Below, piece by piece: positions 23,413-55,996 of a stretch of DNA of 64,000 bases. This stretch comes from an uncultured Eubacteriales bacterium. Lineage in GTDB: Bacteria; Bacillota; Clostridia; Oscillospirales; CAG-272. The DNA lies in contig CAOKER010000006.1 of the NCBI GenBank assembly GCA_948467545.1, forward strand, positions 66,772 through 130,771. The letters are read 5' to 3'. The first letter of the stretch is position 1. Every line of letters begins with the position of its first letter. The notes below the pieces were generated by a model. It saw only the letters and a program-made list of their open reading frames with translations, made no database searches and was not told the origin of the DNA. A program made the translations under genes and the position numbers.

Positions 23413-23427
23413 ACTTTTTATTTTTAG

Positions 23428-29970: not shown

Positions 29971-30359
29971 TTTGTTACCTCCCTTTCACGCTGTCGCCTT
30001 TTGCGTGCGCGGTTCTGTTCGCGAATTCTGTCGAGCGCGTCAGTATTCTGATACTTGTCCCAGTTGGTTATAAAGACGGTCTTATTCTCTACGGTTATCA
30101 TTCCGTAATTTTCAAACAGGCAGAATGCCTCCCTTATCAGCTTGACAGGCTGCCGCATCAGCGTAGCAAACATCTCCGGCGTGTAGCCGCGCCCGTTGCT
30201 CAGCCTAAAGGCTCCGCCGTTGTTCTGCTTGCCCGCAAGGCACAGCAGTTTAATCCATATCAGAACTATACTGTCGGCATGCGGATTTTCCGTGATAAAT
30301 AGTATTTTTTCATTATCAAAAATGTCCGTTGCAAGCTTTACCCATTTTAACTCCGCCAT
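29967..30359 (-). CDS. phage replisome organizer N-terminal domain protein
   Basis: MAELKWVKLATDIFDNEKI...IWIKLLCLAGK matches my recollection of the phage replisome organizer family. I prefer ATG 30359 (AAGGAAG upstream) to the track start 30437. Confidence 0.65.
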   Translation of the reverse strand: MAELKWVKLATDIFDNEKILFITENPHADSIVLIWIKLLCLAGKQNNGGAFRLSNGRGYTPEMFATLMRQPVKLIREAFCLFENYGMITVENKTVFITNWDKYQNTDALDRIREQNRARKRRQREREVTK

Positions 30360-30430
30360 AGGCATCACTTCCTTCGCAAAAGCTTTGCAGAGAAATATCC
30401 GAATTAAGATGTCCCTGTAATATTTTTTTC

Positions 30431-30459
30431 TTGACAAAAAATACTGTTAATGTTATACT
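30431..30459 (+). promoter_or_regulatory. sigma-A promoter (TTGACA-17 nt-TATACT, TGt extended -10) reading toward the repressor gene
   Basis: -35 at 30431..30436, -10 at 30454..30459. The spacer carries a direct repeat of atactgttaa. Confidence 0.5.
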
Positions 30460-35148: not shown

Positions 35149-35248
35149 ATTCAGAGCACCTCGCAATGTTTCATGATTTTGTCACGCAAAATCGCCGTCT
35201 GCGGCGGCGAAACGAAACTTGCATCTTAAAGTTTTAGCTTTAAGCTAC
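35146..35248 (-). repeat. dispersed intergenic element, family 1, copy 4
   Basis: Minus strand: gtagcttaaagctaaaactttaagATGCAAGTTTCgtttcgccgccgcaGACGGCGATTTTGCgtgacaaaatcatGAAACATtGCGaggTGCTCTGA. Confidence 0.6.
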
Positions 35249-35781
35249 TAATCCGGGCAGCTCGGATTAAATTCGGTTTCGTACGGTTCTCTGTCAAAGA
35301 TTACGTCTTTATCTCCCTGTACTATTCCGTAATTCTCTTTAAAGCAATACTCTTTCGACACCAGCAAAAATCCTTTTGACTCGTAATACGTAACTACGGT
35401 TTCGGAATTTTTATTCATTTTTTCATATAATCCGACATAATCTTTACCGTCGCAGGTTTTGGACGTAACGCCGATAAAAACGCTTGCTATGACGCATATT
35501 AAGGCTGCCAATACCGCCGCGATAACCGAAAAAAAAGTTTTTATAAATTTAGAGTGCAAGAACGAAAGAATTACTATAGCAGTCACCGCAGCCAAAATCG
35601 CATAGGCGAATATTTTCACGGTTAATATATACTTTACTGAAAATAAAAAATAAAGCACTAAAGAAAACAACGGGCAAAACATTAACAAGCATGCCGGGAT
35701 TGCCATACGATATTTTTTATATACTATACCCGTTATTAGCAGAATTCCCGATATCATGATGAGTACTAATTCATAAACCAT
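35248..35781 (-). CDS. 4-TM membrane protein with small C-terminal soluble domain (paralog of 37225..37749)
   Basis: ORF track. Same length class and TM layout as 37225..37749. Both end with a ...(D/Y)(R/Y)EP(Y/H)..E(F/Y)N... tail. Confidence 0.6.
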   Translation of the reverse strand: MVYELVLIMISGILLITGIVYKKYRMAIPACLLMFCPLFSLVLYFLFSVKYILTVKIFAYAILAAVTAIVILSFLHSKFIKTFFSVIAAVLAALICVIASVFIGVTSKTCDGKDYVGLYEKMNKNSETVVTYYESKGFLLVSKEYCFKENYGIVQGDKDVIFDREPYETEFNPSCPD

Positions 35782-37217: not shown

Positions 37218-37225
37218 TTTCTTTT
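37191..37225. repeat. 12-nt tandem repeat (cattttcttttt x2 plus one 11-nt copy) across a gene start
   Basis: Units at 37191..37202, 37203..37214 and 37215..37225. Each unit encodes MKKK on the minus strand. Confidence 0.85.
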
Positions 37226-37749
37226 CATTTCACTTCCTCATTATATTCTCTTCTATGCGGTTCATAATCGAAAATACCGTCAAGACTGCTCATTATTCCG
37301 ACGTATGTATCCTCAAAAAGAATAATCCTTCGCCATAAACAACGGAGATTTTGTTTCGTGATAAGTAACAATAACCGAACAAAATCAAAATTTAAATAAA
37401 TTCCCGCATATGTCCGTTCATCAAGGCTTTTATAGCATACACCTATAACATCTTTATAGAGATTATACATTAAACAAGAAGCTGATAAGGCTATTACGCA
37501 GAAAATACTTCCTATAATCTTCATTGTAGAAAAGAAAAAAATACAAATGGTTACTGCAAAAAGAATTATGTATATTGCTACCCTTATATTGGGTATATAT
37601 CTTAACGACAAAACAACATCCGCAAATATCGACGACAGCGAAAACAATGCCGATATACACGCAAATATTATCAGAATTTTCTTTTCACTCTTTATTCCTA
37701 TCAGCAAAAATATAATCGAATATATTAAAAATATAATATCCAGAATCAT
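37225..37749 (-). CDS. 4-TM membrane protein (paralog of 35248..35781)
   Basis: ORF track. Four hydrophobic helices. The stop TGA overlaps an out-of-frame ATG (ATGA). Confidence 0.6.
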   Translation of the reverse strand: MILDIIFLIYSIIFLLIGIKSEKKILIIFACISALFSLSSIFADVVLSLRYIPNIRVAIYIILFAVTICIFFFSTMKIIGSIFCVIALSASCLMYNLYKDVIGVCYKSLDERTYAGIYLNFDFVRLLLLITKQNLRCLWRRIILFEDTYVGIMSSLDGIFDYEPHRREYNEEVK

Positions 37750-38448: not shown

Positions 38449-38740
38449 ACCTAAACCTTATTATGATATACTAAATATTACTTGCCGACACAAGAAAAGA
38501 GACAAATGTCTCCGAACACTGTGAATCCATCCTCACAATTCACACTGCAAACGCATATACCGGTCGTCAATAAGGCGCAAAACGCCGTAACGAGCCGTCG
38601 GACGGCGAATCGTACTGCCCAACCGCCAATAATAAGAAATCCTATGAACTCCGCCGCATATAAAGCAGAGGATATCTTGCTTTACGTTATATTTAGCGAA
38701 TACAGTGCTTTACCTTTATATTCAGCGAATATAGTTTCGA

Positions 38741-39721
38741 TCAATAGAGTGAAATCAACCGTGACAGCAAGCTTTTTTCTGATACATAAATTTTCTCAAG
38801 AGTCAATTTCATCGCGGGTATTTTGTTCTTATCGTATTTTTTTGCATAATACAAACACATATTCCATAAGAATTTTGCGTCGGCCACTACCGAACTGTAA
38901 GCACTGCTTATAGAATCATTCATGCAAAAATACTCTTCGATTTTTTTGATACGTTCCAACATAAACTGTTTATGCTCCAAAATCATCTTAAAAGGACGCA
39001 ATTCAAAATAAAATACATCCGAATCTTTGTCATGAAACATTTCAATATATTTTATTAGATATTTATGAACGATAATTCCATAGGCGGTTGTGTTTTCTTC
39101 CAAACTATTATTTGTTATCGGCGGATCAAGATGCTCCTGAATTTTGGTTTTTATTATATACGGATCAAATTCTATGTTAATTTGCATTGGTTTCATAGCA
39201 ATAAGACAACCGCAACTTCCCATTTTTTCGGTCGATTTTCTCGCTCTTTCGAGACATATCTGAGGCATTTGAAATACACGGTATCGCATATTAACATCAT
39301 ATGCATATACGCTATACGTTTTTTCAATTTGGTTATATCCGCAAATCAGCCCGTCATGCAGATAATGCTTATTATGATATCCATATCTCCCTTTCATATA
39401 ATAATCATCTATCGCTCCAAAATAGACATAATATCCTTTGTCTATCATATTCCTTATAACGCGGTTAACCGAGCCGTCGAGAAAAGTAAGCAAAATTTTT
39501 TGACGCTCTATAAACGGATTGTCTTCCGGTCCTGACTGACATACATCCACATGAGGCTGAAAGAAACCGGAAGGGTTCTCGTCTTGTACAGACAAAACCA
39601 TAGAATTATTTAAATACCAATTTCTCATGCTGCCGTTACTATATAATATGGATGTCACTGTCCCCTGTCCATGACTGACACTGTAAATAGGTGAAACTAG
39701 CGGAAGATTAACATTTTTCAT
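38741..39721 (-). CDS. uncharacterised 326-aa protein, divergent third member of paralog family X (BtrH_N/DUF4872-like?)
   Basis: GYYVYFGAIDDYYMKGRYGYHNKHYLHDGLICGYNQ and FELRPFKMILEHKQFMLERIKKI align with GEYIFCCPNEGYF...DFDHECLLWGLDYE and IDMRYIRSFLEHKHLMNLRLKYL of the island-1 proteins. Confidence 0.5.
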   Translation of the reverse strand: MKNVNLPLVSPIYSVSHGQGTVTSILYSNGSMRNWYLNNSMVLSVQDENPSGFFQPHVDVCQSGPEDNPFIERQKILLTFLDGSVNRVIRNMIDKGYYVYFGAIDDYYMKGRYGYHNKHYLHDGLICGYNQIEKTYSVYAYDVNMRYRVFQMPQICLERARKSTEKMGSCGCLIAMKPMQINIEFDPYIIKTKIQEHLDPPITNNSLEENTTAYGIIVHKYLIKYIEMFHDKDSDVFYFELRPFKMILEHKQFMLERIKKIEEYFCMNDSISSAYSSVVADAKFLWNMCLYYAKKYDKNKIPAMKLTLEKIYVSEKSLLSRLISLY

Positions 39722-39844
39722 TTGTTTTATATCCTTTCATCTGATGCAAAACGGATAATTTATTATAAATGCTCTTAAATATCGGATATTTTCGGATTTA
39801 TCTTCTATCATTCAGGTATAATATTCCGCTTGATATTCTATTAT

Positions 39845-41662
39845 TCAGGTATAATATTCGGATTGAGAATTCCATAAAGCTTTATATAACCCACCATCAC
39901 GTTTTAAAAGCTCTTCATGCCCTCCCTGCTCTGCAATGCAGCCGTCTGAGATAACTATAATTTTATCACAAAATCTGCATGATGACAGCCTGTGTGATAT
40001 ATATATTGCAGTTTGCCCATCTATAATTTCCTGAAACTTTGAATAAATCTCATATTCGGCAATAGGATCAAGCGCCGATGTGGGTTCGTCAAGTATTACG
40101 CATTTGGAATTATTATAAATCGCTCTTGCCAATGCAATTTTCTGAGCCTCGCCGCCTGATATTTCAACTCCGCTGTTATCATAATGGCGATACAGATAGG
40201 TATCTACACCATCCGGTAATTCATTGAATTTATCACCGAATCCGCATTTTTCAAGACATTCCTTTGCCCGCAGTTCATCGATAGGTTCTCCGAAAGAGAG
40301 GTTTTCGCCAAGGGTAAACGCAAATATTTTAAAGTCCTGAAAAACAACTCCGAGCATTTTTACATATTCATCATAAGAGTAGCTCCAAATATCAGCCCCG
40401 TTTAATAAAATCTTTCCCTCACACGGCTTATACAGCCGGCACAGCAATTTTACTATTGTTGTTTTTCCGGAGCCGTTTAATCCCACCAGCGCTACTTTTT
40501 CTCCCGGAGTAATTTCAAATGTTACATCTTTCAAAACATATATTTCGGCGCCCGGATATTTGAACGCCACATTCTCAAATTTGATCGAACAACACTTCTC
40601 ATCGCTTATTACAGCGGTTTTTGCGTTTTCAGTTGTCTTTTCTTCCGGAAGATCCAAAAATTCAAAATATTTTTCAAGATATTTATTATTGTACAGCAAT
40701 GATTTTGTTTGACTGATTAAATCCCCGAAAACACCGACAAGCATAACCGACGTAGTAACATACTTAGATATGCTTCCGATTGTGATACTTCCCACAACAC
40801 ATCCGTAAATTGCAACAATATAGAGTATGACGGAAAGCAAACCCAATGCGGTTTGTACGATTATATTTTTTTTAACTATTTTCGTTTGTGTTTCAATTAA
40901 TATTCCGTTGCCCCTGTCAAGTTCTTTTGAATGCGTATTGTGAATAAAATCCTCAAGATGGAAAATGCGAATGTCCTTCCCCGATTGATAATTCTCATAC
41001 AAATCTGTATAATAATTGCAAATTTCATTATGCTTTACCAATTTGTCGTACATACCAAAACGCATAGACTGAATCTTTCCTTCGGTAAGATACTTGATAA
41101 AAACAACAGCAATAATTCCGAATATGCAGAGTATTCTCAATCCTGCAGAAAATTCACTCGAAAGCAAAAATTCGCACAAAAGGGAAAAAGCGTAAACTAT
41201 ATTGGAAATACTGGATATTAATCTTGTGATAAACATATTAAAATAATGCAGGTTAAACCCGTTTTGATTCGTAGAATCTATATATGTTGTAAGAGCATGA
41301 ATCTCATTACTTTCCAAGAGCTCATACTTCATCTTCATTGACTTATCTGTCCGTATCATTCTCTCATTTGTAATAAAATAATTGTACCTGAGATCCTTCA
41401 TACGGTTCAGCCAAGCCATAGCCATGGAAAATAACGCATTAAACAAAAGGAGAAACAAGACAATACCCCAAGTTCTTTTTTGATTAATGCTGTCTTCCGC
41501 CAGTGAGTCGATCAACATAGCGGAAACATAAATATCAACATATGCCTGTATCGGGCTGACGACAGAAATGAAAATATTTTGAACAGTATATACCGCGTCC
41601 ATCCTCAGCAGTGTTTTCAAACCGCGAAGAATAAGCCGTATATTCTTTTGTATTTTTTTCAT
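39845..41662 (-). CDS. ABC exporter, fused permease/ATPase
   Basis: Walker A GLNGSGKTT, signature ISGGEAQK, Walker B VILDEPTSALD. No N-terminal C39 peptidase domain. Confidence 0.85.
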   Translation of the reverse strand: MKKIQKNIRLILRGLKTLLRMDAVYTVQNIFISVVSPIQAYVDIYVSAMLIDSLAEDSINQKRTWGIVLFLLLFNALFSMAMAWLNRMKDLRYNYFITNERMIRTDKSMKMKYELLESNEIHALTTYIDSTNQNGFNLHYFNMFITRLISSISNIVYAFSLLCEFLLSSEFSAGLRILCIFGIIAVVFIKYLTEGKIQSMRFGMYDKLVKHNEICNYYTDLYENYQSGKDIRIFHLEDFIHNTHSKELDRGNGILIETQTKIVKKNIIVQTALGLLSVILYIVAIYGCVVGSITIGSISKYVTTSVMLVGVFGDLISQTKSLLYNNKYLEKYFEFLDLPEEKTTENAKTAVISDEKCCSIKFENVAFKYPGAEIYVLKDVTFEITPGEKVALVGLNGSGKTTIVKLLCRLYKPCEGKILLNGADIWSYSYDEYVKMLGVVFQDFKIFAFTLGENLSFGEPIDELRAKECLEKCGFGDKFNELPDGVDTYLYRHYDNSGVEISGGEAQKIALARAIYNNSKCVILDEPTSALDPIAEYEIYSKFQEIIDGQTAIYISHRLSSCRFCDKIIVISDGCIAEQGGHEELLKRDGGLYKALWNSQSEYYT

Positions 41663-41795
41663 TTTTTAATATCTCCTTTCGTATGAGATAAAAGCCATCG
41701 CCGATTTCGATTCATCAAAATGCAGGTCTGTCCCACCGGCAAGGTATAAAACTTTTGACTGTTTTGACTGGAAGATCAAACCTTCATTGCAATTC

Positions 41796-43607
41796 TTATA
41801 CATAATAAGCGCTTTGCTTCTCAAACATTTCGCTGTATAAGCCGCCTGCTTTTACCAGTTCATCATGCGTTCCGACCTCGGCAATCTCTCCGTGATTCAT
41901 GACAAATATTCTGTCACAAAATTGAGCGGACGCCAGCCTGTGAGAAATATATATTGTTGTTTTTCCTTTTGAAAGCTCTGCATACTTCTGATACAGTTCT
42001 CTTTCTGCTATCGCGTCCAAAGCGGCAGTAGGCTCATCCAAAATCAAAATCGGAGCATTTCTGTATATAGCTCTTGCAATCAAAAGCTTCTGCTTTTCAC
42101 CGCCTGATAAATCTACTCCGTTCTCATTCATCTGCTTGTTGAGTTTTGTATGTATGCCGTCGTCTAACGACATAACCTTATCGTATAGGCCCACCATTTT
42201 TAATGCCCATTCCACTCGCTCCGTATCCGATTCATCCTCAGCCATACATGAAATATTGCTCATTATGGACAGCGGCAAAAAGGTAAAGTCCTGAAAAACT
42301 GCTGAAAACATTGAATAGTATTTGTATATGTTATATTCCTTCATATCTTTTCCGTTTACATAAACATTTCCGTGAGTCGGAGTATACAGACCGCACAAAA
42401 CCTTTACAAGCGTTGTTTTTCCCGCCCCGTTTAAACCGACTATGGATATGTTTTCACCCGGTTTTATATCAAAAGATATATTTTTTAATGTATTATCATC
42501 AGCAGATATATATTTATAATCCAAATTTTCAACTTTTATCGCGCATCCTTCATTGATTGCAGATACATCCGCACCGTCCGACCTATTCCCTTTTTCGGCA
42601 TAGTTTACAAATTCTCTGTAATCGTTCAACTGAAAACTGATTCCGCTCATATCTGTAAATGTACTGATAATTCCGCCTATCATTGACGCATAGCTTCCGA
42701 CCGCGCCAAGATAGAACACAAAATTGTCAACGGTAATTTGACTCTGTAAAGCCATTGAAATCAAAATAAAATATGCAAATCCGTCACGCAGCAAAATCAG
42801 CAGTATATCGGCAAAGTTGGAGAGAAAGTTTTTCCGCGCGACCTTGATATTCCAACTCATTCGCCTCTTCATGGTATCCCTGTACTTTTGAATAATCCAA
42901 TCGGACAAGCCGTATATTCTTATATCTTTAGACGCATCAAACGAGCTCCCTATATTCGCAATATACCATAGGCGTTTATCCAGCACCGACATTTCTTCTT
43001 TGTTTTTAAACTGGAACTTTTGCACATATCTCGCCGTAAAAAAGTTAAGAATCGGCATAATCGTAAGATACACCACAAGAAAAGGATTTGCAAATGACAA
43101 AACTGCGGAAAACAGGAAATATTTTAATACGTTTGTGATCAGGCTGTTTAAATCGACCGAGATTCTTTCAACCGCTGAAATTCCTCCGCTCTGCCACAGT
43201 ATCTGATCGGAGCGATCCATCAACGTACGGAATTCCTGAGACTCTATGTTTTCATAGTCGGTCGACAAACATTTTCTCATTTTATTTTTAATCATATGAT
43301 TTAAAAAAAACATTGAAGATACAGACTGCTTGTTTCCGATTAGAGACGACAATATTTGACAAATAATCATCACGAAGAATATACATACAAAGCGTACTGT
43401 GAAGACCTTATAATCCGATTGTGACATGGCCGCCTGAACCGCAAGCTTGGGCACATATATGCCTAAAAAGGCTATTGCCAAATCGAAAGGTATTGTCGTC
43501 AGCAACCATACCAAAGACATTTTGTTGAATTTTAACTGCATCTTTAAAACATATACAATATTATTAAACAGTGAATATTTCGGTTTAACGGTTGTTTTTT
43601 CTTTCAC
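41796..43607 (-). CDS. ABC exporter, fused permease/ATPase
   Basis: Walker A GLNGAGKTT, signature LSGGEKQK, Walker B LILDEPTAALD. No C39 domain. Confidence 0.85.
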   Translation of the reverse strand: MKEKTTVKPKYSLFNNIVYVLKMQLKFNKMSLVWLLTTIPFDLAIAFLGIYVPKLAVQAAMSQSDYKVFTVRFVCIFFVMIICQILSSLIGNKQSVSSMFFLNHMIKNKMRKCLSTDYENIESQEFRTLMDRSDQILWQSGGISAVERISVDLNSLITNVLKYFLFSAVLSFANPFLVVYLTIMPILNFFTARYVQKFQFKNKEEMSVLDKRLWYIANIGSSFDASKDIRIYGLSDWIIQKYRDTMKRRMSWNIKVARKNFLSNFADILLILLRDGFAYFILISMALQSQITVDNFVFYLGAVGSYASMIGGIISTFTDMSGISFQLNDYREFVNYAEKGNRSDGADVSAINEGCAIKVENLDYKYISADDNTLKNISFDIKPGENISIVGLNGAGKTTLVKVLCGLYTPTHGNVYVNGKDMKEYNIYKYYSMFSAVFQDFTFLPLSIMSNISCMAEDESDTERVEWALKMVGLYDKVMSLDDGIHTKLNKQMNENGVDLSGGEKQKLLIARAIYRNAPILILDEPTAALDAIAERELYQKYAELSKGKTTIYISHRLASAQFCDRIFVMNHGEIAEVGTHDELVKAGGLYSEMFEKQSAYYV

Positions 43608-43662
43608 TTAATATACACCCCTTCGGCAATAAATAAGATGCAGCTGAATAAACGGCAATTTA

Positions 43663-45459
43663 TTATGTAAAATATTCAATTATCTCTTCCGCCATTCCGG
43701 ATTTTTCATCCTCATCGTCGAGAATAAAAACAGAAATTGAAAACTCGTCTTTGAGTATTTTTTTAAAATTTAACAAATCATCGATATCCGCACGAACAGA
43801 TAAAGTTCCCAGTGTATTCCATTTTACGGTTTTTAAAATCGGGAAAATTGCAATCCCGATAACATCTGATATTACAATACTTTCCAAGTAACGAATTGTT
43901 CTTCTGATATAATCAATATCATCGAAAATATTAACGACAAGTATGACAGCGTCCGGATTTACACCAAGAAGAAAAAAATGATTTGTAAGTGCCATATCCC
44001 GTACATTACATACTTGCATGGGAATAGTCTGTGATTGAAGCCCTGTAATAATTATATCCGGATTAATGTCTTCAATTGCTCCAAGAACATGATTTACCGC
44101 TGCAATCATCTCAATTCCGTTATCGACTTTGACAGTTGAATTATAGCCCATCGGAAATACCATATCTGCTCCCAACAAATATCCGGAAGGTTCGGTAGCC
44201 AATAATCCGACATTAATGCCTCTTTTCCTCAGCAATCTTTTAATATCCAGTTGAAGACTGTATTTTCCTTGTCTTGGTGAAGTACCCGCAATACATAATA
44301 TAGGCTTTCCAATTTGCCTAAGCTTCCCGTTATAATTATTAGGTATGTTATCTTGTGTAATCTGTGGAGTATAGCAAGCAACAGCCCCGAACTTTTCCGA
44401 ATATACAGATACATCATCAAAAGAGTAAATTTTTTTGCCATATTCCGCACATTTTTTTACAATATAATTACTGTAATTAAAACGCGATAATTTATTTATT
44501 TCATCCAAATGCCCTAAAATAACCGTATCAAAATCATCTTCCCAATTAATATGATCTACATTTTGAATTAATATTTCTGGTTCTCGATTAACGCTTTTAC
44601 CAATATTTTTCAAATATTTAATGTCGTATACACCTACAATGGTGGGAATAATATCATTATAGTGCAATAACATAGTCGAAATTTCTTTGTTATACGGAAA
44701 CATAATAGCTTTATTTATATCAAACGGCAATTTGACCGGTAATGGCTCTGCTGCTTCTAATACCTTTATAGATTTATTCATCAGCATGATATGCAATTCA
44801 TCTAAAGGAATTCTGCCGCCTCTATATATAAACATATTGGCAATAATTCCGGTAATATATGGAGCGCTGAAGCTTGAGCCAAAAACATCAATGTATTTAG
44901 CTCCTATTCCTTTCAACCGCTGTGCTGTTCCGATGGCCGAAATATTAATCGGAGAATTTTTTATATAGTAAAATTCATTTCTTTTTACACATTGTGAATT
45001 GCTATCGACTCCAATTACAAACGGAAACGCAGCGGGATACGACAATGCCCCGTTATTATCATAAGACGATATTATCACACATCCATTATCGCAAAGTTCT
45101 TTACAAATGCCGCGCAATTCAAATATCTGATCACAAAAAGATACACCGAGACTTAAATGTATAATATCCGGTTTCACATTTTCAAGTAAATATTTTAATC
45201 CATATATTAACTTTTCCGTAGTTATTTCTTCGATTTCATCATCGAATAATTTTAGTATGAACAGCGATGCATCGGGAACGAAAGTTTTAATGATATTTGT
45301 AACCACAGTTCCATGTCCAGTATGATCTTGGAAATCGCTTAATAATTGAAAGCCATCGTTATCTCCATTTGGAACTATGGAAAGTCCCTCATAATTACAA
45401 ATATCATCAACCCCGCTGTCTATTATGGCTATTCTTACCGAATAAGCTTTATCCGACAT
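43663..45459 (-). CDS. S8 (subtilisin-like) serine peptidase fused to a C-terminal P-loop (DUF1611-like) domain
   Basis: Triad contexts IAIIDSGVD (Asp), HTGHGTVVT (His) and GSSFSAPYITG (Ser). The C-terminal third has a Walker-A-like CIAGTSPRQGKYSL followed by ...LATEPSGYLLGAD..., reminiscent of DUF1611. Confidence 0.7.
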   Translation of the reverse strand: MSDKAYSVRIAIIDSGVDDICNYEGLSIVPNGDNDGFQLLSDFQDHTGHGTVVTNIIKTFVPDASLFILKLFDDEIEEITTEKLIYGLKYLLENVKPDIIHLSLGVSFCDQIFELRGICKELCDNGCVIISSYDNNGALSYPAAFPFVIGVDSNSQCVKRNEFYYIKNSPINISAIGTAQRLKGIGAKYIDVFGSSFSAPYITGIIANMFIYRGGRIPLDELHIMLMNKSIKVLEAAEPLPVKLPFDINKAIMFPYNKEISTMLLHYNDIIPTIVGVYDIKYLKNIGKSVNREPEILIQNVDHINWEDDFDTVILGHLDEINKLSRFNYSNYIVKKCAEYGKKIYSFDDVSVYSEKFGAVACYTPQITQDNIPNNYNGKLRQIGKPILCIAGTSPRQGKYSLQLDIKRLLRKRGINVGLLATEPSGYLLGADMVFPMGYNSTVKVDNGIEMIAAVNHVLGAIEDINPDIIITGLQSQTIPMQVCNVRDMALTNHFFLLGVNPDAVILVVNIFDDIDYIRRTIRYLESIVISDVIGIAIFPILKTVKWNTLGTLSVRADIDDLLNFKKILKDEFSISVFILDDEDEKSGMAEEIIEYFT

Positions 45460-45463
45460 GCCG

Positions 45464-46810
45464 TTATACCTCTTCTATACATTTTGCATTGGCAATTAAC
45501 TTCTTATTTTTGTATATATATTGAAAATCATTTTTGAATAATTCATCACATTGCGAGGGATAGTGAAGTATTTTTGTATTTAAAGGGCATGTGGCGCCCA
45601 TACATTCCGGATAATGAATACAAGCAATGCACTGTTTGCCAGGAGATCTTCCAAGCCATTTTGACATTTTTCCTATATGAATCTGCATAATTCCGTTCTC
45701 TGTAATATTCCCGATGCAATTTATATTTTTATATTGAATGCTATCCATTACCATTGCACATTTATATACATATCCGTCATAATTTACAACAAAACCATGT
45801 CTTTTAGAAGCTGTGCAAATCGAACCGCTTTTATCATTTCGGTCAAATCCGCCATTAAATGTAAACCCTTTTTCCGATAGTTTTTTTAACCATTCAAAAC
45901 CGTCTTTATCCTGTAGCAGTAGATTCCTATTTTTATCAATTTTTTCGCCTCCCCAGTCACGCACATATTCCCAAACTATCGTAAAATGCGGATCATTTGC
46001 AAAATTGTTCTCCAACCAATCTATATGTTCATTTAAAAACGGAAGTGTTTGAGATGAAACATTTATTCTAAGTGCAATAATGAATTTATATTTGCTGAAT
46101 TTCTCTTTGATTGTCAATAAATTTTTAACAATCATATCAAATGAGTCATCTTTTGTCTTATGAGGCCGAAGTCTATTATGAATCTGTTTGGGACCATCCA
46201 AAGTGACTTGATAAAATCGAAGATGGGTTTTAACAAGGGAACCAAATGTTAATTCATCTAACTCATATCCATTAGTAGTTATGCTTGAATATAACGGCTT
46301 TTTATATTTTTTACAAATAGTTCTTATTTGTTCCATCATAGATATAATTAATTTTTTAGCCAACAAGGGTTCTCCGCCAAACCAAGATACAAGCAAACCG
46401 TTATACTTACGCAGATTTTTTTCTATATAAAGTATTATACTTTGAGCAGTGATATCTGACATGTAATAATAAGGCTCTTTTTGATAGCAATAAACACAGT
46501 TAAAATTACATGCATTAGTCGGTATTATCGTAAGTTCCAGTCTATTATTTTCATAAATTTCAGAATTGTAATAATAATTAACGATTTCCGCTTCATCAAT
46601 ATCGTCTTCTATAATAAATCCCCAATTATACAACTCCCGCATTTTTTCATCTAATGTATCGGTCTCAAAAATACCTTTATCTAAAAGTTCGTTCACGGTT
46701 TCAATCATATTGCCTTTAATACGCAATACTTTTTGCGATAAAGTGTTTTTTAATATCATATCGTTATCATCGAAAGTCTTGAAAATATATGACGAAACTT
46801 TATATTTCAT
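45464..46810 (-). CDS. radical SAM/SPASM peptide-modifying enzyme with N-terminal RRE-like domain
   Basis: CNFNCVYC (CxxxCxxC, nt ~46487..46510) and GGEPLL. The C-terminal Cys cluster CTASKRHGFVVNYDGYVYKC...CIACIHYPECMGATCPLN is typical of SPASM domains. About 90 aa precede the rSAM core, as in RiPP maturases. Confidence 0.8.
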   Translation of the reverse strand: MKYKVSSYIFKTFDDNDMILKNTLSQKVLRIKGNMIETVNELLDKGIFETDTLDEKMRELYNWGFIIEDDIDEAEIVNYYYNSEIYENNRLELTIIPTNACNFNCVYCYQKEPYYYMSDITAQSIILYIEKNLRKYNGLLVSWFGGEPLLAKKLIISMMEQIRTICKKYKKPLYSSITTNGYELDELTFGSLVKTHLRFYQVTLDGPKQIHNRLRPHKTKDDSFDMIVKNLLTIKEKFSKYKFIIALRINVSSQTLPFLNEHIDWLENNFANDPHFTIVWEYVRDWGGEKIDKNRNLLLQDKDGFEWLKKLSEKGFTFNGGFDRNDKSGSICTASKRHGFVVNYDGYVYKCAMVMDSIQYKNINCIGNITENGIMQIHIGKMSKWLGRSPGKQCIACIHYPECMGATCPLNTKILHYPSQCDELFKNDFQYIYKNKKLIANAKCIEEV

Positions 46811-46867
46811 GGTTCTAACCTTTCATAACAATTTTAGATGATCCGAAATATTTTATTATATACCGTA

Positions 46868-47671
46868 TTATTGATTTATCAGATCATTAACTGCGTTCAA
46901 ATAATCATTAAAAGATAGTAAAGCATCTTGTTGAAACAGCTCGTCGGGCAAACTGATTTTAAATACATCCTCAATTTCACATATAACAGATATACTCTGA
47001 AGTGAATCAAGCTCTAAGTTGTCGCAAAGATTATCCTCAGATATTTCTATTCCGGAATTCTCAAATATCATTTTTAATTTTTCTGAAGTTCGCGATCTTT
47101 CGCTATTCTTCTTTTTTATCCGACTATCATCTTCATCGTGTGATTTACGATATATTTCAATCTTATTCTTTGTTTTTGATCCCGCCAAATTATAGAGCGA
47201 TTTTGAGATAATTGCCAGAGGTGTTTGCTTCAGTATGGCATAATCGGTTATGACATCTATAACCTGATCATCTGCAAACGACGCTGCGGTATTTATTAAA
47301 ATTTCAGGCGAACAATTCTTACCAATAGAATATTTAACAATTTTTTTTATACTATTTGAACTTATATAAGGGCAAACCTTCCTCAACAATATTTCCGCGG
47401 GCAGTTGACAGTCTATGGCTTTTTTGACAACTTGATCACATAAATCCACAGTTATAAAAGAATCGACTGCATCAATCAATACGAGACAATCGACATTTTC
47501 TTCGAGAGCTTTTTTTAACAGTCGGTTTGATATGTTTGAGTCAAAATACATCAAAAATTTCAGTATTTCAGTTACATCTGCGCTTTCGTCCGTTAAATAA
47601 GCTTCGGCAATAAGGTTAGCAGCAACAGATGTCAAAGATGGGATATCATCTAATCTATTATTGGTATTCAT
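46868..47671 (-). CDS. helical-repeat protein fused to a C-terminal acyl/peptidyl carrier protein-like domain
   Basis: The last ~75 aa, KLKMIFENSGIEISEDNLCDNLELDSLQSISVICEIEDVFKISLPDE...FNDYLNAV, show the carrier-protein DSL Ser context. The N-terminal part has about four ~30-aa repeats (..KKAI....PEILI..). Confidence 0.6.
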   Translation of the reverse strand: MNTNNRLDDIPSLTSVAANLIAEAYLTDESADVTEILKFLMYFDSNISNRLLKKALEENVDCLVLIDAVDSFITVDLCDQVVKKAIDCQLPAEILLRKVCPYISSNSIKKIVKYSIGKNCSPEILINTAASFADDQVIDVITDYAILKQTPLAIISKSLYNLAGSKTKNKIEIYRKSHDEDDSRIKKKNSERSRTSEKLKMIFENSGIEISEDNLCDNLELDSLQSISVICEIEDVFKISLPDELFQQDALLSFNDYLNAVNDLINQ

Positions 47672-47722
47672 TTAATCTTTCTTGATATATAGATATCATT
47701 TTCCTTTCACAAATATCTAATC

Positions 47723-47737
47723 AAGGATAAGTTATCC
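47723..47737. promoter_or_regulatory. perfect 7-1-7 palindrome AGGATAAgTTATCCT (possible operator)
   Basis: Seen at 47723..47737, 52-66 nt upstream of the carrier-fusion gene start, in the 196-nt spacer after the peptide gene. Confidence 0.3.
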
Positions 47738-47867
47738 TGCTTTAGTAAGGTGATTCAGTGGAACCGACCTGCCATAAAGGTGGTGGACATCTTGCTTTTT
47801 ATTAACATAAATAACAAAGGGATGCAGTATTAAATGCCAAACAGTGCCAAGGAATAGTTATATATAT

Positions 47868-47960
47868 TTATCTGCCTATACAACAAATTCTACATCCGAA
47901 TTCCGGATATGAATAAAGACGAACTTTTTGCATCTTCTTACTTTTTTTCTTTAACTTCAT
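47868..47960 (-). CDS. 30-aa Cys-rich candidate precursor peptide MKLKKKSKKMQKVRLYSYPEFGCRICCIGR (not in the ORF track)
   Basis: Hand translation of the minus strand. ATG at 47960..47958, AAAGGAGG at 47975..47968 (7-nt spacing), TAA at 47870..47868. It is the first ORF after the promoter at 48067..48095 and heads the rSAM operon. Confidence 0.65.
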   Translation of the reverse strand: MKLKKKSKKMQKVRLYSYPEFGCRICCIGR

Positions 47961-48066
47961 GATTTCGCCTCCTTTCTTTACCATCCCTCTGTTATTTATA
48001 TCCAAAACATTGGAAACATACGACAAATTAAATTGTATTTTCAACTTTTATCTTTATTATAACTAT

Positions 48067-48095
48067 ATATTACCATATATATGAACATCTGTCAA
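48067..48095 (-). promoter_or_regulatory. sigma-A promoter (TTGACA-17 nt-TAATAT, TGg extended -10) of the peptide/rSAM operon
   Basis: Plus-strand tgtcaa at 48090..48095 and atatta at 48067..48072. The leader to the peptide ATG is ~100 nt. Confidence 0.6.
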
Positions 48096-48343: not shown

Positions 48344-49372
48344 TCAATCGACAATTTCAAATACCTTTACACCATTCCATGTTGAAATGACAATTATATT
48401 CGGAGACAGCTCCGCGATATTCCAAACACCGTAATCTATTTTTTGCTTTCCTAAAATCGACTTTGTTTCCGCATCTACAACAAATATACCGAGATGTGAG
48501 CCGACATAATATCTTTTTCTGTCATACGAAAGACATACTTTATTTAAACTGTCATATAATGATATATTCTCCATTGCAAATGCATTTGACAATTTTTTCA
48601 GTTCATAAATATTGTCACTTTCCATATTCATATCCGAAAAAACACCGGAAAATGAAGCAGTAATTACGCCCGGCTCAGGCAGCGAAATACTTTCCGCTAT
48701 TTTACCGTAAACACTGCAGCGTAATGTCTTTTTATGACCATATATAATTACAGTGTTTGTCTCAGACTCATACTCGGCACAGCGTATAGCATCACCGCTT
48801 ATATTTTCAACAGGATATTCTTCAAATGAAACTCCGTCAAACCAAATCATGTTCCAACAATCGGTTTGATCAAGTTCAAATTTTTTTCGATCCAGCCCAA
48901 ACAACAGATATTTGTCTAATTCTTTAACAGGCATAATACTGACAAGCCAATATTTTTCTTCAAGAAGATCTTTAAATGACATATTATCATTTAAATTGTA
49001 ACAACGCAATGCAGAATTTAACGTTTTGTCATTGCAAACATTGAAATAAAGCGATCTCTCATGCAATGACCAACATCCTCTCCCCTCCAAATTGCCGCTA
49101 TACTTGCCTCGGATAGTATATTTCTCCACAATAAAGTCATATAAATCAACAAGATAAAATATATTTTCTGCGGAAATAAGCAGCAGCTGTGTTTCATCCG
49201 GTGAAATAAAAGCATGATATACATAAGATAAATTTTCTGCCGTAAAAAGCAAATCAAGCTTTCTGCTGCATATAAATGCACGCCTACCCGTGCAAAACAC
49301 ACTGTATTTTTCGGAAAAGCAAAAATTCTTTGCATTTTTCATAAAATCATATTTCAATTGTTTGAATTTCAT
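48344..49372 (-). CDS. hypothetical protein (repeat/beta-rich, possibly propeller-like)
   Basis: ORF track. AT-rich like the island. I prefer ATG 49372 (MKFKQLKYDF) to the TTG track start 49417. No motif recognised. Confidence 0.5.
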   Translation of the reverse strand: MKFKQLKYDFMKNAKNFCFSEKYSVFCTGRRAFICSRKLDLLFTAENLSYVYHAFISPDETQLLLISAENIFYLVDLYDFIVEKYTIRGKYSGNLEGRGCWSLHERSLYFNVCNDKTLNSALRCYNLNDNMSFKDLLEEKYWLVSIMPVKELDKYLLFGLDRKKFELDQTDCWNMIWFDGVSFEEYPVENISGDAIRCAEYESETNTVIIYGHKKTLRCSVYGKIAESISLPEPGVITASFSGVFSDMNMESDNIYELKKLSNAFAMENISLYDSLNKVCLSYDRKRYYVGSHLGIFVVDAETKSILGKQKIDYGVWNIAELSPNIIVISTWNGVKVFEIVD

Positions 49373-49906
49373 TATAAAAATTTCTCTTTCATAATAAACA
49401 CGGACGGCATTTTTCAATCCGGCTGATCAATATGCTATTGATTCAATCCAATAAATAATATGTATTCTTTTTTAAGAAAAAAAGGTTCAAAAAACGGATA
49501 GCCGTTTTCGGTTATAAACTTGCACGGGGTGTTAAAATCATAAAATTTATACGGTAACGGCTTTCACGTACAGTTTGCAATTATATCATTAACAAAGTGA
49601 CTGCATATCATGATAAAATTCTCAATTATATTATAATTATTCAATTTTATCTTTTAAATCAATCATTCTTTATGCTTATTGTAACACAAACTCCGATTTG
49701 TTTCAATCGCAAATCGGAGTTTTATTAATTTTATTTGTATTTTTACAGCGGTTATTATGAAAAATTCACACTTCACATATTTCAAAACAAACGCCTGAAA
49801 AAAGCTCCTTTCGCTTTACTAAAAAATCTTCAAAATTTTGCTGCCCCACACTTTAATGTCGGCGCAAAATAGTTTATTATTATGCACACAAAGGAGGTGG
49901 TAAAGC

Positions 49907-50350
49907 TTGAATACGGACGATTCGACAAAATCGGACGACGGCATGAATACGAAATTCGGCAGAAACGCAAACGAAAAGTCCGAAAGCATGGAGGTCCGCA
50001 CAGCGGAAACGGGGCGCGAAGAATTTTTCTCCGTATTGTCCCCAAAAGAAGAAAAGCTCCGGGACAAACGACTGAAAAAAATATGCCGTCTCGCGGACCG
50101 CGTTATAGACAGACTTACCGGCGCAGTCGAGGAGCTCGAAGCTACAGATACTCAGCGCTTCAGGCAGATTGTCGCCTCTATAAAAGAAATAAAGGATATA
50201 CAGATGCTTGATTCGCCGTCCGAACGTCTTGAAAAACAGCTCAAGCTTAAAAACCTTGAAAGGCAGATGCTTGAATCCGAAACCGAAAACACTTCAGATT
50301 CCAAAGAAATTCTTGTCCATATAGAGGGAGACGAGGGATACAGCGAATGA
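49907..50350 (+). CDS. phage protein, candidate small terminase subunit (positional)
   Basis: TTG start with AAGGAGG 9 nt upstream. ATGA overlap with terL. No motif recognised. Confidence 0.4.
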   Translation: MNTDDSTKSDDGMNTKFGRNANEKSESMEVRTAETGREEFFSVLSPKEEKLRDKRLKKICRLADRVIDRLTGAVEELEATDTQRFRQIVASIKEIKDIQMLDSPSERLEKQLKLKNLERQMLESETENTSDSKEILVHIEGDEGYSE

Positions 50351-52128
50351 AATCCGTGCAGAACCGAAATTCCGAATTCAATCTGCGAAACGATTCAGGT
50401 CCCAAACAAAGCAGGTCCTTCGAATTTAGGCAAAACCAAGCTTCTATGATTATACAATATCAGGATGGCACAATTAAACAGAATCATGCTGCCGCGATTA
50501 AGCAGAATCAAGACTCCGCGATTAATAAAAATCATGACCCCAAGATTAATAAAAATCATGATTCCGCGATTAAACAGAATCATGACTCCAAGATTAATAA
50601 AGTTCATGATTCCGCGATTAAACAATATCAAGCTGCCGCATTTAAGCATGATCAAGACTCCGCAATTATGCAGAATCAAGCTGTCTGCGTTAAACATGGC
50701 AGGGTTCCTTCGCTCACGATTGAAGCTCCGAACGAGAAGCAAAAGCTCTTTCTCAAGGCGAAAACGAAGCATATCGGATTCGGAGGCGCGCGCGGCGGCG
50801 GAAAAAGCTGGGCAGTGCGGACAAAGGCGATTCTTCTCTCGCTCCGTTATCCCGGAATCAAGCTGCTGATTGTCAGACGAACTTATCCGGAGCTGATGGG
50901 AAACCACATAAGAATTCTACGCTCACAGCTTGCGGGAATCGCAAAATACAACGACAAGGACAAGCTTCTGCTTTTCTCAAACGGAAGCAGTATAAGCTTT
51001 TCCTACTGCGCGTGTGACAAAGATCTTGACCGTCTTCAGGGAGTCGAATACGATATAATCTTTCTCGACGAGGCGACTCAGCTTTCGGAATTTCAGATGA
51101 AATCAATTACCGCGTGCCTGCGCGGAGTCGGAGCTTTTCCCAAACGGATATATTATACCTGCAACCCCGGAGGACAGGGGCACGGGTATATAAAGCGGAT
51201 TTTCATCGACCGAAGATATGAAGAGGGCGAAAATCAGAAGGACTACACCTTTATACAGTCGCTTGTTACCGATAATGCCGCTCTCATGCGCGCACAGCCC
51301 GACTACATAAAGCAGCTTGAGGCGCTTCCGCCGAAGCTGCGCGACGCATGGCTCCTCGGACGATGGGACGTATACGAAGGACAGTTCTTCGAGGAGTTCG
51401 CGGACAAGCCCGACCATTACCGTGACAGACGGTACACGCATGTTATAGCACCGTTTGATATTCCGTCGGACTGGCGTATTTTCCGTTCGTTTGACTGGGG
51501 CTACAACAGGCCGTTTTCATGCGGCTGGTGGGCGGTCGATCACGACGGAACGGCATACAGAATTTTAGAGCTTTACGGCTGTACGGGCAATCCGAACGAG
51601 GGTGTGCGCTGGACGCCGAAAGCAGTATTCAAAGAAATCCGCCGCATCGAAAGCGAACATCCGTTTCTCAGCGGAAAACATATTACCGGAATCGCCGATC
51701 CTGCGATATGGGATGCGGAAACCGGCGAGAGCATTGCGGAGACGGCAGCGCGCTGCGGTGTACATTTTATTCCGGGCGATCACAAAAGAATTCCGGGATG
51801 GCTTCAGGTTCATTACCGTATGGCATTCGACCGCGAGGGCTTTGCCATGCTGTACGTATTTTCAAACTGCCGCGCTTTCATCCGTACCATCCCCCTGCTG
51901 CTTTATGACACATCAAAACCGGAGGACCTGAACACCGACGGTGAGGATCATGTCGCCGACGAGGTCAGATACTTCTGCATGAGCAGACCGATCTCTCCGA
52001 GAGCTAAGGAAAACGACGGATACGCGACAAATCCGCTTCGGCTGTTTCTCGATATCCCGCGCGGGTCTCTGGGCAGGCTTCCGCCGCCCGAACAGTGCGG
52101 CAGGATTGAAATAATCACAGACGCATGA
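50347..52128 (+). CDS. terL: phage terminase large subunit with repeat-containing N-terminal extension
   Basis: Walker A-like GFGGARGGGKSW, Walker B-like IIFLDEATQL, C-terminal nuclease-type GEDHVADEVRY. About 130 aa precede the Walker A. Confidence 0.85.
   Translation: MKSVQNRNSEFNLRNDSGPKQSRSFEFRQNQASMIIQYQDGTIKQNHAAAIKQNQDSAINKNHDPKINKNHDSAIKQNHDSKINKVHDSAIKQYQAAAFKHDQDSAIMQNQAVCVKHGRVPSLTIEAPNEKQKLFLKAKTKHIGFGGARGGGKSWAVRTKAILLSLRYPGIKLLIVRRTYPELMGNHIRILRSQLAGIAKYNDKDKLLLFSNGSSISFSYCACDKDLDRLQGVEYDIIFLDEATQLSEFQMKSITACLRGVGAFPKRIYYTCNPGGQGHGYIKRIFIDRRYEEGENQKDYTFIQSLVTDNAALMRAQPDYIKQLEALPPKLRDAWLLGRWDVYEGQFFEEFADKPDHYRDRRYTHVIAPFDIPSDWRIFRSFDWGYNRPFSCGWWAVDHDGTAYRILELYGCTGNPNEGVRWTPKAVFKEIRRIESEHPFLSGKHITGIADPAIWDAETGESIAETAARCGVHFIPGDHKRIPGWLQVHYRMAFDREGFAMLYVFSNCRAFIRTIPLLLYDTSKPEDLNTDGEDHVADEVRYFCMSRPISPRAKENDGYATNPLRLFLDIPRGSLGRLPPPEQCGRIEIITDA
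50446..50685 (+). repeat. ten in-phase 24-nt tandem repeats inside the terL 5' region
   Basis: Unit gcgattaaacagaatcatgactcc and variants, with boundaries every 24 nt from 50446. They encode (A/K)I(K/N)(Q/K)N(H/Q)D(S/P). Confidence 0.9.
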
Positions 52129-52216
52129 AAATTTCTCCGCTTTTCATGCGCACGGCGCCGAAAACGACCGAGCTGAAAATCCGCGCGGAGCCGCCGAGAA
52201 ATTTAAGGAAAAACCG

Positions 52217-54217: not shown

Positions 54218-54402
54218 GCTATAACTCAAAGCAGGATATTCATGTATCCAAGGAAACCGCAGGTTGTCACGGCTTCTTATACAATCCCCGACCGTGACTC
54301 CCGACGACCGCGCTTTGAGACTTATCGAAATAAACCGCCGCAGCTGCGGCAATGAAAAATTTGACATGTAAGGACTTGACTTTAAGGTGTAACCGAATCA
54401 AT

Positions 54403-54771
54403 ATGTTAAATGTAAAAATAACAGAAGAGGAGCTCGTAATCAGCGGACATGCCGGTTACGCGCCGCACGGCTGTGATATAGTCTGCGCGGCGGCTACGAT
54501 TCTTTCATATACAGCAGCCGAATGTGTAAAAAACGCGGCTGCACAGGGCCGGCTCAAAGAAGAGCCTTTTATAAGCCTGAACCCGGGACATATCGAAATC
54601 CGCTGTTCCCCAAAATACGCTTACAGCTCCGAGATTCACGCGGTATTCGCAGCGCTTCGCGGCGGATTTCAAATGCTCGGAGAAAATTATCCGATGTCGG
54701 TGCTGTGTAAGTCGGATACGGAAAAGACCTGCGGCCCGAAAGCTTCGCGCGCAGTACGCGCTTTAGGGTGA
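54403..54771 (+). CDS. prp: Prp-like (DUF464) cysteine protease
   Basis: ISGHAGYAPHGCDIVCAAATIL carries the His-Cys dyad context of ribosomal-processing cysteine protease Prp. I prefer ATG 54403 (MLNVKI). Confidence 0.7.
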   Translation: MLNVKITEEELVISGHAGYAPHGCDIVCAAATILSYTAAECVKNAAAQGRLKEEPFISLNPGHIEIRCSPKYAYSSEIHAVFAALRGGFQMLGENYPMSVLCKSDTEKTCGPKASRAVRALG

Positions 54772-54923
54772 AGGCTTCACAAGAATTAACCAAAATGAAA
54801 GGACAATGAAAGAACGCGGAAAAATACGGTGTGCGGATTCTTCCCGATACAAGTACAGCAAGTATTCCGCTCACAGTTCCCGCGCAAAGTTAAGCCGAGT
54901 CAAGCGGAAAAAATGAGGTAAAT

Positions 54924-55823: not shown

Positions 55824-55996
55824 ACTGCTTCAAGATCACACATTTCAATAATTCAATAAGCCGCGCGCCGTAATGTGATACCGAGTCGGCGGACCGTCAC
55901 GCCGCCCTGAAAAGCCCTGAAAAAGGGCGGAACAGCCCGCCGACAGAGAGGCGGGGGACATCTCTTGCCTAAAGTTATAACAGAAAGGAAAAAGTT

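Follow-up and report, generated by a model that had tools for sequence, protein, structure and literature searches.

Several described pathways resemble, each in part, the locus considered here. Ranthipeptide clusters, such as the CteB and PapB systems, need only a radical S-adenosylmethionine (rSAM) enzyme, a protease and a transporter. In the maturation of quinohemoprotein amine dehydrogenase (Qhp), the rSAM enzyme QhpD makes Cys-to-Asp/Glu thioethers in the QhpC peptide, the cytoplasmic S8 protease QhpE cuts off the leader, and QhpF is an ATP-binding cassette (ABC) exporter. Goadvionins and lipolanthines are ribosomal peptides N-acylated from a carrier protein, and their pathways use polyketide synthase (PKS) or fatty acid synthase (FAS) machinery, a GNAT transferase and cores of the lanthipeptide type. 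The NCBIfam models TIGR04065-04069, named 'Cys-rich peptide maturation system' (CcpM), already catalogue in silico an association of an rSAM enzyme, a protein related to acyl carrier proteins (ACP), a TIGR04066 protein, a subtilase, ABC transporters and a precursor. Clusters of this type have been noted in Roseburia intestinalis L1-82 and in Paenibacillus polymyxa (SacP23). When the SacP23 cluster was expressed heterologously, the active peptide had a mass of 3.4 kDa, against 4.46 kDa predicted, and its N-terminus was blocked to Edman degradation (PMC10731318). The present analysis concerns an operon at positions 38741-48095 of a 64,000-nucleotide stretch of contig CAOKER010000006.1, from an uncultured Eubacteriales bacterium; the whole of this stretch is called the window hereafter. 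The window, with its two AT-rich islands, belongs to the chromosome of a gut bacterium.

The operon is made of seven co-directional open reading frames (ORFs) on the minus strand, separated by short spacers. They encode, in this order, a Cys-rich precursor peptide, a carrier protein, a radical SAM/SPASM peptide maturase, an S8 protease fused to a DUF1611-like P-loop domain, two ABC exporter half-transporters and a member of a family called here family X. An earlier note on this DNA, written from the sequence itself, had outlined such an operon, and all seven ORFs are indeed found where it placed them, with the domains that it named; the profiles Radical_SAM, SPASM, Peptidase_S8, DUF1611 and PP-binding are all matched. 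All seven ORFs are full length, and the catalytic motifs of the rSAM, S8 and P-loop parts are intact. The view that the operon is of the type producing a peptide made on ribosomes and modified post-translationally (RiPP) is borne out by a precursor conserved in sequence and position across relatives. In contrast, the statement that the combination lies outside any known RiPP class goes too far, since a carrier protein, a DUF1611-like protein, an rSAM/SPASM enzyme, an S8 protease and ABC transporters make up the TIGR04065-04069 system. As for the chemistry, the chances seem to us evenly balanced that the operon directs the synthesis of a thioether-type RiPP coupled to an acyl transfer that depends on the carrier protein, the acceptor probably being the N-terminus that the fused protease lays bare. 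We infer both the thioether and the acylation.

With the TIGR04065-04069 system (CcpM, SacP23), the operon shares the list of parts: Cys-rich precursor (of the CLI_3235 type in CcpM), rSAM/SPASM enzyme, ACP-related protein, TIGR04066, subtilase and ABC transporters. However, all curated cut-offs are missed (80 bits against 500 for TIGR04068, 52 against 200 for TIGR04066, 18 against 70 for TIGR04069), and the precursor does not match the CLI_3235 model TIGR04065. With 30 amino acids and three Cys, it also differs from that of SacP23, which has about 61 residues. Furthermore, the fusion of the S8 protease to the TIGR04066-like domain and the repeat extension of the ACP set the window operon apart from the Ccp system, and a BtrH/CtaG-like protein is frequent in loci of the window type. 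Because the cut-offs are missed, the precursor type differs, the S8 protease is fused and family X is added, the operon was kept outside membership of TIGR04065-04069.

Gene 1 (47868..47960 including the stop codon, minus strand) corresponds to the Cys-rich 30-residue peptide singled out in the earlier note. It encodes MKLKKKSKKMQKVRLYSYPEFGCRICCIGR, with the ribosome-binding sequence AAAGGAGG located 8 nt 5' of the ATG. A basic leader is followed by a conserved region, L-Y-x-Y-P-E-F-G-C-x-x-C-C, which holds the three Cys. In relatives whose rSAM enzymes are 53-72% identical to that of the window, an ORF 5' of the carrier-protein gene carries the motif L-[YF]-x-[YN]-P-E-[FH]-G-C-x-x-C-C; the precursors are MKLRKKEKKIQRVRLYGYPEFGCSTCCIGK (rSAM 72% identical), MKLVKNVKKIQKVKLFSYPEFGCNVCCN (55%) and (V)KLKKSAKKVRQVTLFANPEHGCGTCCNWNAGC (53%). 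Orthologous small ORFs occupy the same position in loci L088, L082 and L086, each preceded by a Shine-Dalgarno sequence and located directly 5' of the ACP gene. Because both sequence and position are kept across relatives, the small ORF is a genuine gene. The rSAM enzyme has its closest relatives in metagenomes, on contigs with the gene order peptide, ACP, rSAM, S8-DUF1611, ABC, ABC. The neighbourhoods of the closest rSAM homologues, a survey of which had been proposed, contain a conserved small ORF 5' of the ACP gene.

Comparable short peptides, made of a leader plus Cys, are found in about 30 more distant loci. Where the rSAM enzyme is 30-40% identical, genomes of Lachnospiraceae, Ruminococcus, Oscillospiraceae, Treponema and Paludibacteraceae encode peptides of 26-45 amino acids of the same build, for instance MKKLIKKSKFKKIIVLYGEKNGAFKCCNS and MTKKVKLKKPQVKKDDKILTLYSTESNGVDSCCPSGQSGNCTC. 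In the common plan of these precursors, a basic leader is followed by an aromatic residue and next by a Glu, which in the distant loci always lies 2-8 residues before the first Cys. The C-termini differ between relatives; cores are very short, 9-12 residues in the window, and tails are variable. At E <= 10, no NCBIfam model matches the window precursor or seven related peptides. In locus L086 (rSAM 53% identical), two extra radical SAM genes, of 340 and 453 amino acids, lie just 5' of the precursor gene (6555-8928), and the core of the precursor is longer, ending in NWNAGC.

The product of gene 3 (45464..46810, minus strand, 448 amino acids) matches the Pfam profiles Radical_SAM (E 2e-16) and SPASM (1.4e-4). 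The rSAM motif CX3CX2C corresponds to C101/C105/C108, and the SPASM Cys cluster that had been proposed can be specified as seven cysteines, C332, C351, C394, C397, C403, C408 and C421, invariant in 15 homologues. The best NCBIfam models are Clo7bot (TIGR04334, 181 bits against a cut-off of 600), TIGR04463 (178.5 against 525), CefB (NF038107, 165 against 600), the geopeptide maturase and PapB (4.8e-33). All these models describe peptide maturases for Cys-rich substrates, and the window rSAM scores far under their cut-offs. It is closer to Clo7bot, TIGR04463 and CefB than to CcpM, whose model TIGR04068 gives 80.1 bits against a cut-off of 500 with an alignment restricted to residues 25-249. The match to the QhpD model is weak (1.7e-13), and the nearest entry of the Protein Data Bank (PDB) is CteB (5wgg). 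The 90 N-terminal residues, where the earlier note saw an RRE-like region, can be aligned to the start of models that cover whole peptide maturases (TIGR04334 from residue 8, NF038107 from residue 1). Grouping of the enzyme with the thioether-forming peptide maturases is supported by these sequence comparisons.

As with the maturases of ranthi- and sactipeptides, CteB (thermocellin) and PapB (freyrasin), the locus combines a putative N-terminal leader-binding region, a SPASM domain with two auxiliary-cluster motifs and an adjacent Cys-containing precursor. A further likeness to PapB, which makes links between Cys and Asp/Glu, is the conserved Glu near the Cys of the window-type precursors. However, the Glu precedes the Cys in the window family, whereas the CteB and PapB systems have a CX3D/E arrangement. 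These systems also differ in having no carrier protein, no DUF1611 protein and no BtrH-like partner.

Gene 4 (43663..45459, minus strand, 598 amino acids) encodes the fusion protein, for which both Pfam matches are obtained as the earlier note had read them. The subtilisin-like domain (residues 1-244, 44728..45459) matches Peptidase_S8 (2.9e-7), and alignment to subtilisin BPN', together with the invariant columns of the domain, shows D14, H49, N135 and S196 to be intact. Its best model is QhpE (NF049966; E 1e-29), with 103 bits against a cut-off of 165. This similarity to a leader protease, together with the intact triad, is consistent with the suggestion that the S8 domain would be the leader protease of the system. 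The Qhp system shares with the operon the logic that leads from an rSAM enzyme to a protease and to an ABC transporter. It differs from the window, where the S8 score stays under the QhpE cut-off, the rSAM match to QhpD is weak, dehydrogenase subunits are absent and the product would be a free small peptide.

The C-terminal part (residues 245-598, 43663..44727) is a two-lobed P-loop domain. It matches DUF1611 (2.1e-7, 31 bits against a gathering cut-off of 25) and carries an invariant Walker A motif, GTSxxQGK, at residues 392-399. TIGR04066 is its best match in 13 of the 13 relatives scanned, the best value being 1e-29, under the cut-off; the window protein reaches 51.6-53 bits against 200. 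A profile comparison relates the domain to PDB entry 2g0t (9.5e-7), and an AlphaFold2 (AF2) model (predicted local distance difference test, pLDDT, 89) matches the folds of 2g0t, 2obn and DgcN (7xrj) at 1e-11 to 1e-10 (3e-10 for DgcN). After these come P-loop enzymes of the SIMIBI class, such as BioD and the Mur ligases. The domain thus scores above the Pfam gathering threshold and shares the fold of the DUF1611 structures and of DgcN; however, sequence identity amounts to 13-15%, and the window domain is joined to a protease and has an ACP as its partner. The fusion occurs in at least 242 protein clusters (90% identity), which argues for coupled steps. Databases name the protein only 'DUF1611 domain-containing protein' or 'S8 family serine peptidase'.

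Gene 2 (46868..47671, minus strand, 267 amino acids) encodes the carrier protein with an N-terminal extension. Five helical repeats of 30 residues (residues 13-162) are followed by a basic linker and by an ACP-like domain (residues ~190-267). The earlier note had proposed helical repeats of about 30 residues fused to an ACP- or peptidyl carrier protein (PCP)-like domain with a serine in a DSL context, and each element is recovered. The periodicity is significant, with an autocorrelation at offset 30 of 49, against -57 +/- 15 (maximum 5) in 200 shuffled sequences. The PP-binding match (Pfam, E 5.8e-5, residues 209-248) reaches 23.7 bits for a cut-off of 20.8, and the carrier serine is Ser223, within LDSLQ (codon 47003-47005). 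The Ser of this D-S-[LIVM] site is conserved in 29 of 29 aligned ACP sequences. The match of gene 2 to TIGR04069 is weak (17.9 bits against a cut-off of 70). In related loci, the ACPs are mostly free-standing, with 73-99 residues, the repeat extension being confined to the clade of the window. In one related operon, L168, a second ACP and a phosphopantetheinyl transferase of the Sfp type (ACPS) are encoded between the S8-DUF1611 gene and a phage-type integrase (7673-8741).

Gene 7 (38741..39721, minus strand; its product is also called X4) was read in the earlier note as containing a BtrH_N-like block. No such block is visible directly, as gene 7 has no match in Pfam or NCBIfam even at E = 10, BtrH_N is matched neither by X4 nor by its close relatives, and a profile search of PDB sequences with the gene 7 family returned only noise. 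The resemblance is nevertheless recovered through the fold and through transitive profiles. The AF2 model (pLDDT 88.6) is composed of a papain-like domain at the N-terminus and of a helical domain at the C-terminus; compared by Foldseek with the PDB, it retrieves AziU3/U2 (7e-8), CtaG (1.2e-6) and CcbD (1.7e-6), with TM scores of about 0.6 over the full length. The fold matches (E 1e-7 to 1e-5) include the complex of CcbD with a PCP. A family X profile, built from trimmed domains, finds 3837 clusters (50% identity), and BtrH_N is matched by 24 of 47 distant relatives linked to the X profile (E ~1e-34 to 1e-44), the best value being 4.2e-8. Because the model matches CtaG and CcbD, and because profile-linked relatives match BtrH_N, the 'BtrH-like' call holds, and it appears right, in view of the modelled fold, to place gene 7 in the BtrH/CtaG/CcbD superfamily as a remote homologue.

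CtaG belongs to papain-like, carrier-protein-dependent amide-forming enzymes also linked to BtrH and AsbE, and its nucleophile is Cys11, at the N-terminus of helix 1 (PMC12865890). Like CtaG (closthioamide), BtrH (butirosin), AsbE (petrobactin), CcbD (lincosamides) and AziU3/U2, X4 has the His, and its gene lies near that of a carrier protein. This His122 belongs to a strand motif H-[DE]-x-h-h-x-G-Y and is invariant in 44 of 44 members of family X. However, X4 has His17 in place of the nucleophilic Cys, lacks a direct Pfam match and sits in a ribosomal-peptide operon instead of a non-ribosomal pathway. No Cys is invariant in the family; '[ST]ECW' is found at the corresponding slot in L088, L086 and several other members, and 'CYP' in others. 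Since the nucleophilic Cys is lacking, there is no guarantee that X4 performs acyl transfer of the classical ping-pong kind.

The tie of family X to carrier proteins, as judged from genomic association, is strong. An X homologue, 62% identical, is found beside an rSAM/ACP/S8-DUF1611 operon that also encodes a second ACP and an Sfp-type transferase. In L172 (9763-12935), a homologue 38% identical to X4 is found in the order NTP_transf_5, thymidylate-kinase-like, PP-binding, X, AMP-binding, CYTH, with overlapping reading frames; this set looks like a small thiotemplated, non-RiPP pathway. P0401, a protein of 2689 residues, is a hybrid of PKS and non-ribosomal peptide synthetase (NRPS), with KS, Condensation, AMP-binding and PP-binding domains, which ends in a family X/BtrH_N-like domain at the position of chain release. 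In a metagenome-assembled genome of Oscillospiraceae (L020, 1393-3933), an X domain (residues 15-370) and an rSAM maturase (residues 397-844) form a single ORF of 846 amino acids; the junction shows neither stop codon nor ambiguous base, and the fusion is in frame. As far as the searchable literature shows, the link of the cassette to thiotemplate ligases is new.

The window itself contains three copies of family X, at 22101-23156, 27514-28572 and 38741-39721. A further candidate, the 357-residue ORF at 48344-49417, was rejected, as it shows no similarity to gene 7, and the actual paralogues are the ORFs at 22101-23156 and 27514-28572. These two Cys-less paralogues, on the plus and minus strands respectively, belong to the second AT-rich island (22101-28572, 27-32% GC), where they flank two ABC exporter genes (23428-25197 and 25197-26957). 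The rSAM enzyme, the ACP, the S8-DUF1611 fusion and a precursor-like ORF are all absent from this island (22-28.6 kb), which points to an ability of family X to function with nothing but exporters.

Genes 5 (41796..43607, 603 amino acids) and 6 (39845..41662, 605 amino acids), both on the minus strand, encode the two half-transporters. Each has a C-terminal ABC_tran domain, and neither gives a C39 match, as had been noticed from the sequence; orthologues of both hold the same positions in related loci. The association of all these genes was assessed in 31 non-redundant loci, which were chosen for the presence of an rSAM gene and the S8-DUF1611 fusion, two of them having been found via family X. 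An ACP-like gene is present in 29 of the 31, as are one or more ABC exporters, and a family X gene in 22. The conserved set is composed of the precursor, the carrier protein, the rSAM/SPASM enzyme, the S8-DUF1611 fusion, the ABC exporters and, usually, family X. These comparisons show the ACP, the DUF1611-like domain and family X in conserved association with each other and with carrier-protein chemistry, at the level of sequence. A transglutaminase-like protein recurs in six related loci. In 6-7 of 28 related loci, for example in L013 (6433-7329) and L017 (7455-8903), the strand of the operon also encodes response regulators of the LytTR (AgrA) type and histidine kinases of the AgrC type (HATPase_c_5). 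There are hints that some of the products are autoinducers, or are auto-induced. Operons of this type are common in gut bacteria yet unstudied.

A possible course of events can be drawn from these elements. The N-terminal domain of the rSAM/SPASM enzyme would recognize the basic leader of the precursor. By homology, the enzyme would then form at least one Cys-derived thioether cross-link in the P-E-F-G-C-x-x-C-C region, the most likely acceptor being the conserved Glu just before the cysteines, as in the chemistry of PapB and QhpD. The cytoplasmic S8 domain, in view of its similarity to QhpE and its intact triad, would cut off the leader. More speculatively, the holo-ACP would bear on Ser223 an acyl group in thioester linkage, the DgcN-like DUF1611 domain, which belongs to the same protein as the protease, might load or transfer this group, and family X might help to pass it to an amine, most plausibly that of the N-terminus freed by the protease. 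The ABC heterodimer would finally export the product, which may be a competition or signalling peptide of this gut Bacillota bacterium. The coupling to an acyl transfer is favoured because of the protease-DUF1611 fusion and because of the blocked N-terminus of SacP23. With goadvionins and lipolanthines the operon would share the principle that a carrier protein supplies the acyl group of a ribosomal peptide, but it has none of the PKS/FAS, GNAT or lanthipeptide enzymes.

Several observations weigh against this course of events. The Pfam match of the ACP is weak, at 23.7 bits. Neither a phosphopantetheinyl transferase nor an obvious acyl-activating enzyme is encoded in the window, and no adenylation, ketosynthase (KS) or acyltransferase (AT) gene recurs among the 31 loci. 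X4 is devoid of the nucleophilic Cys, His17 being found at the start of helix 1 (this position follows from the model's secondary structure and was not derived by structural superposition). Family X is absent from about 30% of the related loci (9 of 31, several of the contigs without X being truncated), and in the window its two Cys-less paralogues are accompanied only by an ABC pair. An NTPase function unrelated to acyl groups would suit the DUF1611-like domain equally well. Expression of the operon, which neighbours prophage genes within an AT-rich island, may be poor. No paper found assigns a chemistry to the rSAM/ACP/DUF1611-like cassette, and searches for DUF1611, DgcN or a carrier protein with SPASM and subtilisin returned no paper on this system, the results for DgcN being mostly unrelated acronyms.

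In a rival scheme, the product is a plain thioether RiPP, cross-linked and exported by means of the rSAM enzyme, the S8 protease and the ABC proteins. Nothing would be added to the peptide by the ACP, the DUF1611-like domain or family X, whose part would be that of a scaffold or chaperone for the precursor, of an NTPase switch for the protease or of an immunity or export accessory, with X4 as a pseudo-enzyme. The missing catalytic Cys of X4, the X1 and X2 paralogues flanking an ABC pair without rSAM or ACP, the nine loci without family X and the lack of a recurrent acyl-activating gene all agree with this scheme, as does the sufficiency of an rSAM enzyme, a protease and a transporter in ranthipeptide clusters. 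However, it is opposed by the phosphopantetheine-site Ser kept in 29 of 29 ACPs, the phosphopantetheinyl transferase gene of a related cluster, the invariance of His122 in 44 of 44 members of family X, the presence of X relatives within thiotemplate contexts and the blocked N-terminus of SacP23. We consider it unlikely, while giving it serious weight.

Much less probable, in our opinion, is a mechanism in which the peptide itself would be tethered to the ACP. The P-loop domain would use ATP to activate the C-terminal carboxylate of the core, which would form a thioester on the ACP, and family X would set free a macrocycle, either head-to-tail or thiolactone, through intramolecular aminolysis or thiolysis. 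In this respect it may be noted that, beyond DUF1611, the P-loop domain resembles the carboxylate-activating SIMIBI enzymes BioD and Mur ligases, and that an X domain is found at the off-loading end of a PKS-NRPS. The very short cores with variable C-terminal tails would also suit such a mechanism, and an Edman-blocked N-terminus fits a cyclisation as well. However, no DUF1611 protein is known to us that loads an ACP with a ribosomal peptide. In addition, DgcN, the sole characterized relative, is named an N-acetyltransferase and not a ligase, and the C-termini of the precursors are not conserved. Finally, the idea that the operon is decaying cargo of a mobile island, non-functional here and without a role for the host, fits the GC content of 31-37% against about 50% in the flanks, the adjoining terminase, portal and capsid genes with a DnaD-like fragment nearby, and one related operon on an IMG/VR contig, but appears the least probable of all in the face of seven full-length ORFs with intact catalytic motifs and of the same operon, with a conserved precursor motif, at 53-72% rSAM identity elsewhere.

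Coming back to a thioether peptide coupled to carrier-protein chemistry, a broader proposal may be envisaged, to which we give tentative credit while leaning somewhat against it. The operon and its approximately 250 relatives would constitute an undescribed RiPP class, in which a very short Cys peptide cross-linked by the rSAM enzyme would then be joined to, or cyclised through, an ACP-bound acyl or aminoacyl group, and in some members of the family would be an autoinducer perceived by adjacent AgrCA-like two-component systems. If true, this would represent a hybrid of ribosomal and thiotemplate logic not documented for rSAM peptides, with a module made of the ACP, a DgcN-like P-loop domain on the leader protease and a ligase of the BtrH/CtaG type.

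The ends of the operon can be proposed from consensus matches. The promoter that the earlier note called strong does exist as a sigma-70-like sequence, TTGACA-17-(TG)TAATAT, on the minus strand at 48067..48095, about 105 nt 5' of the ATG of the precursor gene. It is a consensus match only, and such matches are frequent (69 found, 50 expected). Because they are so common in AT-rich DNA, the element at 48095..48067 is recommended by its position alone. On the same strand, a terminator-like hairpin followed by a T-run (38498..38513), about 230 nt past gene 7, may mark the end of the operon; this is again a consensus match only, and the number of such sites equals the chance expectation. The interval that separates the precursor gene from the ACP gene was also checked for a terminator or attenuator, and there is none (fold z-score -0.83).

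Prophage material with about 50% GC abuts the AT-rich operon. It comprises a DnaD-like replisome-organiser fragment (29967-30437) on one side and, within 49907-62254 on the other, a large terminase (50347-52128), a P22-like portal (52217-54217), a capsid protein (55997-57040) and an internal virion protein (58241-60037). No tRNA gene was found at the border of the island. Both the relatives and the phage matches indicate Bacillota of the human gut. Because one related operon is carried by an IMG/VR contig, mobility via prophage-associated islands is plausible. The ORF of 357 residues mentioned above (48344-49417, minus strand) lies between the operon promoter and the phage terminase and is also found on the Logan contig L001; it has no match in Pfam, NCBIfam or PHROGs. 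On the 3' side of the operon, among small ORFs without family match, two paralogous multi-pass membrane proteins of about 175 residues are encoded on the minus strand (35248-35781 and 37225-37749; 29% identity, E 3e-15), which may be immunity proteins. Farther away, the minus strand carries a Pel-like exopolysaccharide cluster (3799-19973), with PelG, a DUF3492 glycosyltransferase, DUF2194, CotH, DUF4832 and an HD-domain protein, and a GGDEF protein is encoded near it (2123-3448).

The system is widespread in gut Clostridia, and the window offers a compact and complete example with a short substrate, which makes it directly testable. Three new handles are provided by the present analysis: a family of precursors in which a Glu precedes the Cys, a regular fusion of the leader protease to a DUF1611-like domain, and a recurrent ligase of the BtrH/CtaG type, which connects the system with thiotemplate chemistry. 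Should the peptide indeed be modified by the carrier module, this would represent a new decoration of ribosomal peptides, and the DUF1611/TIGR04066 proteins of such clusters would receive their first function.

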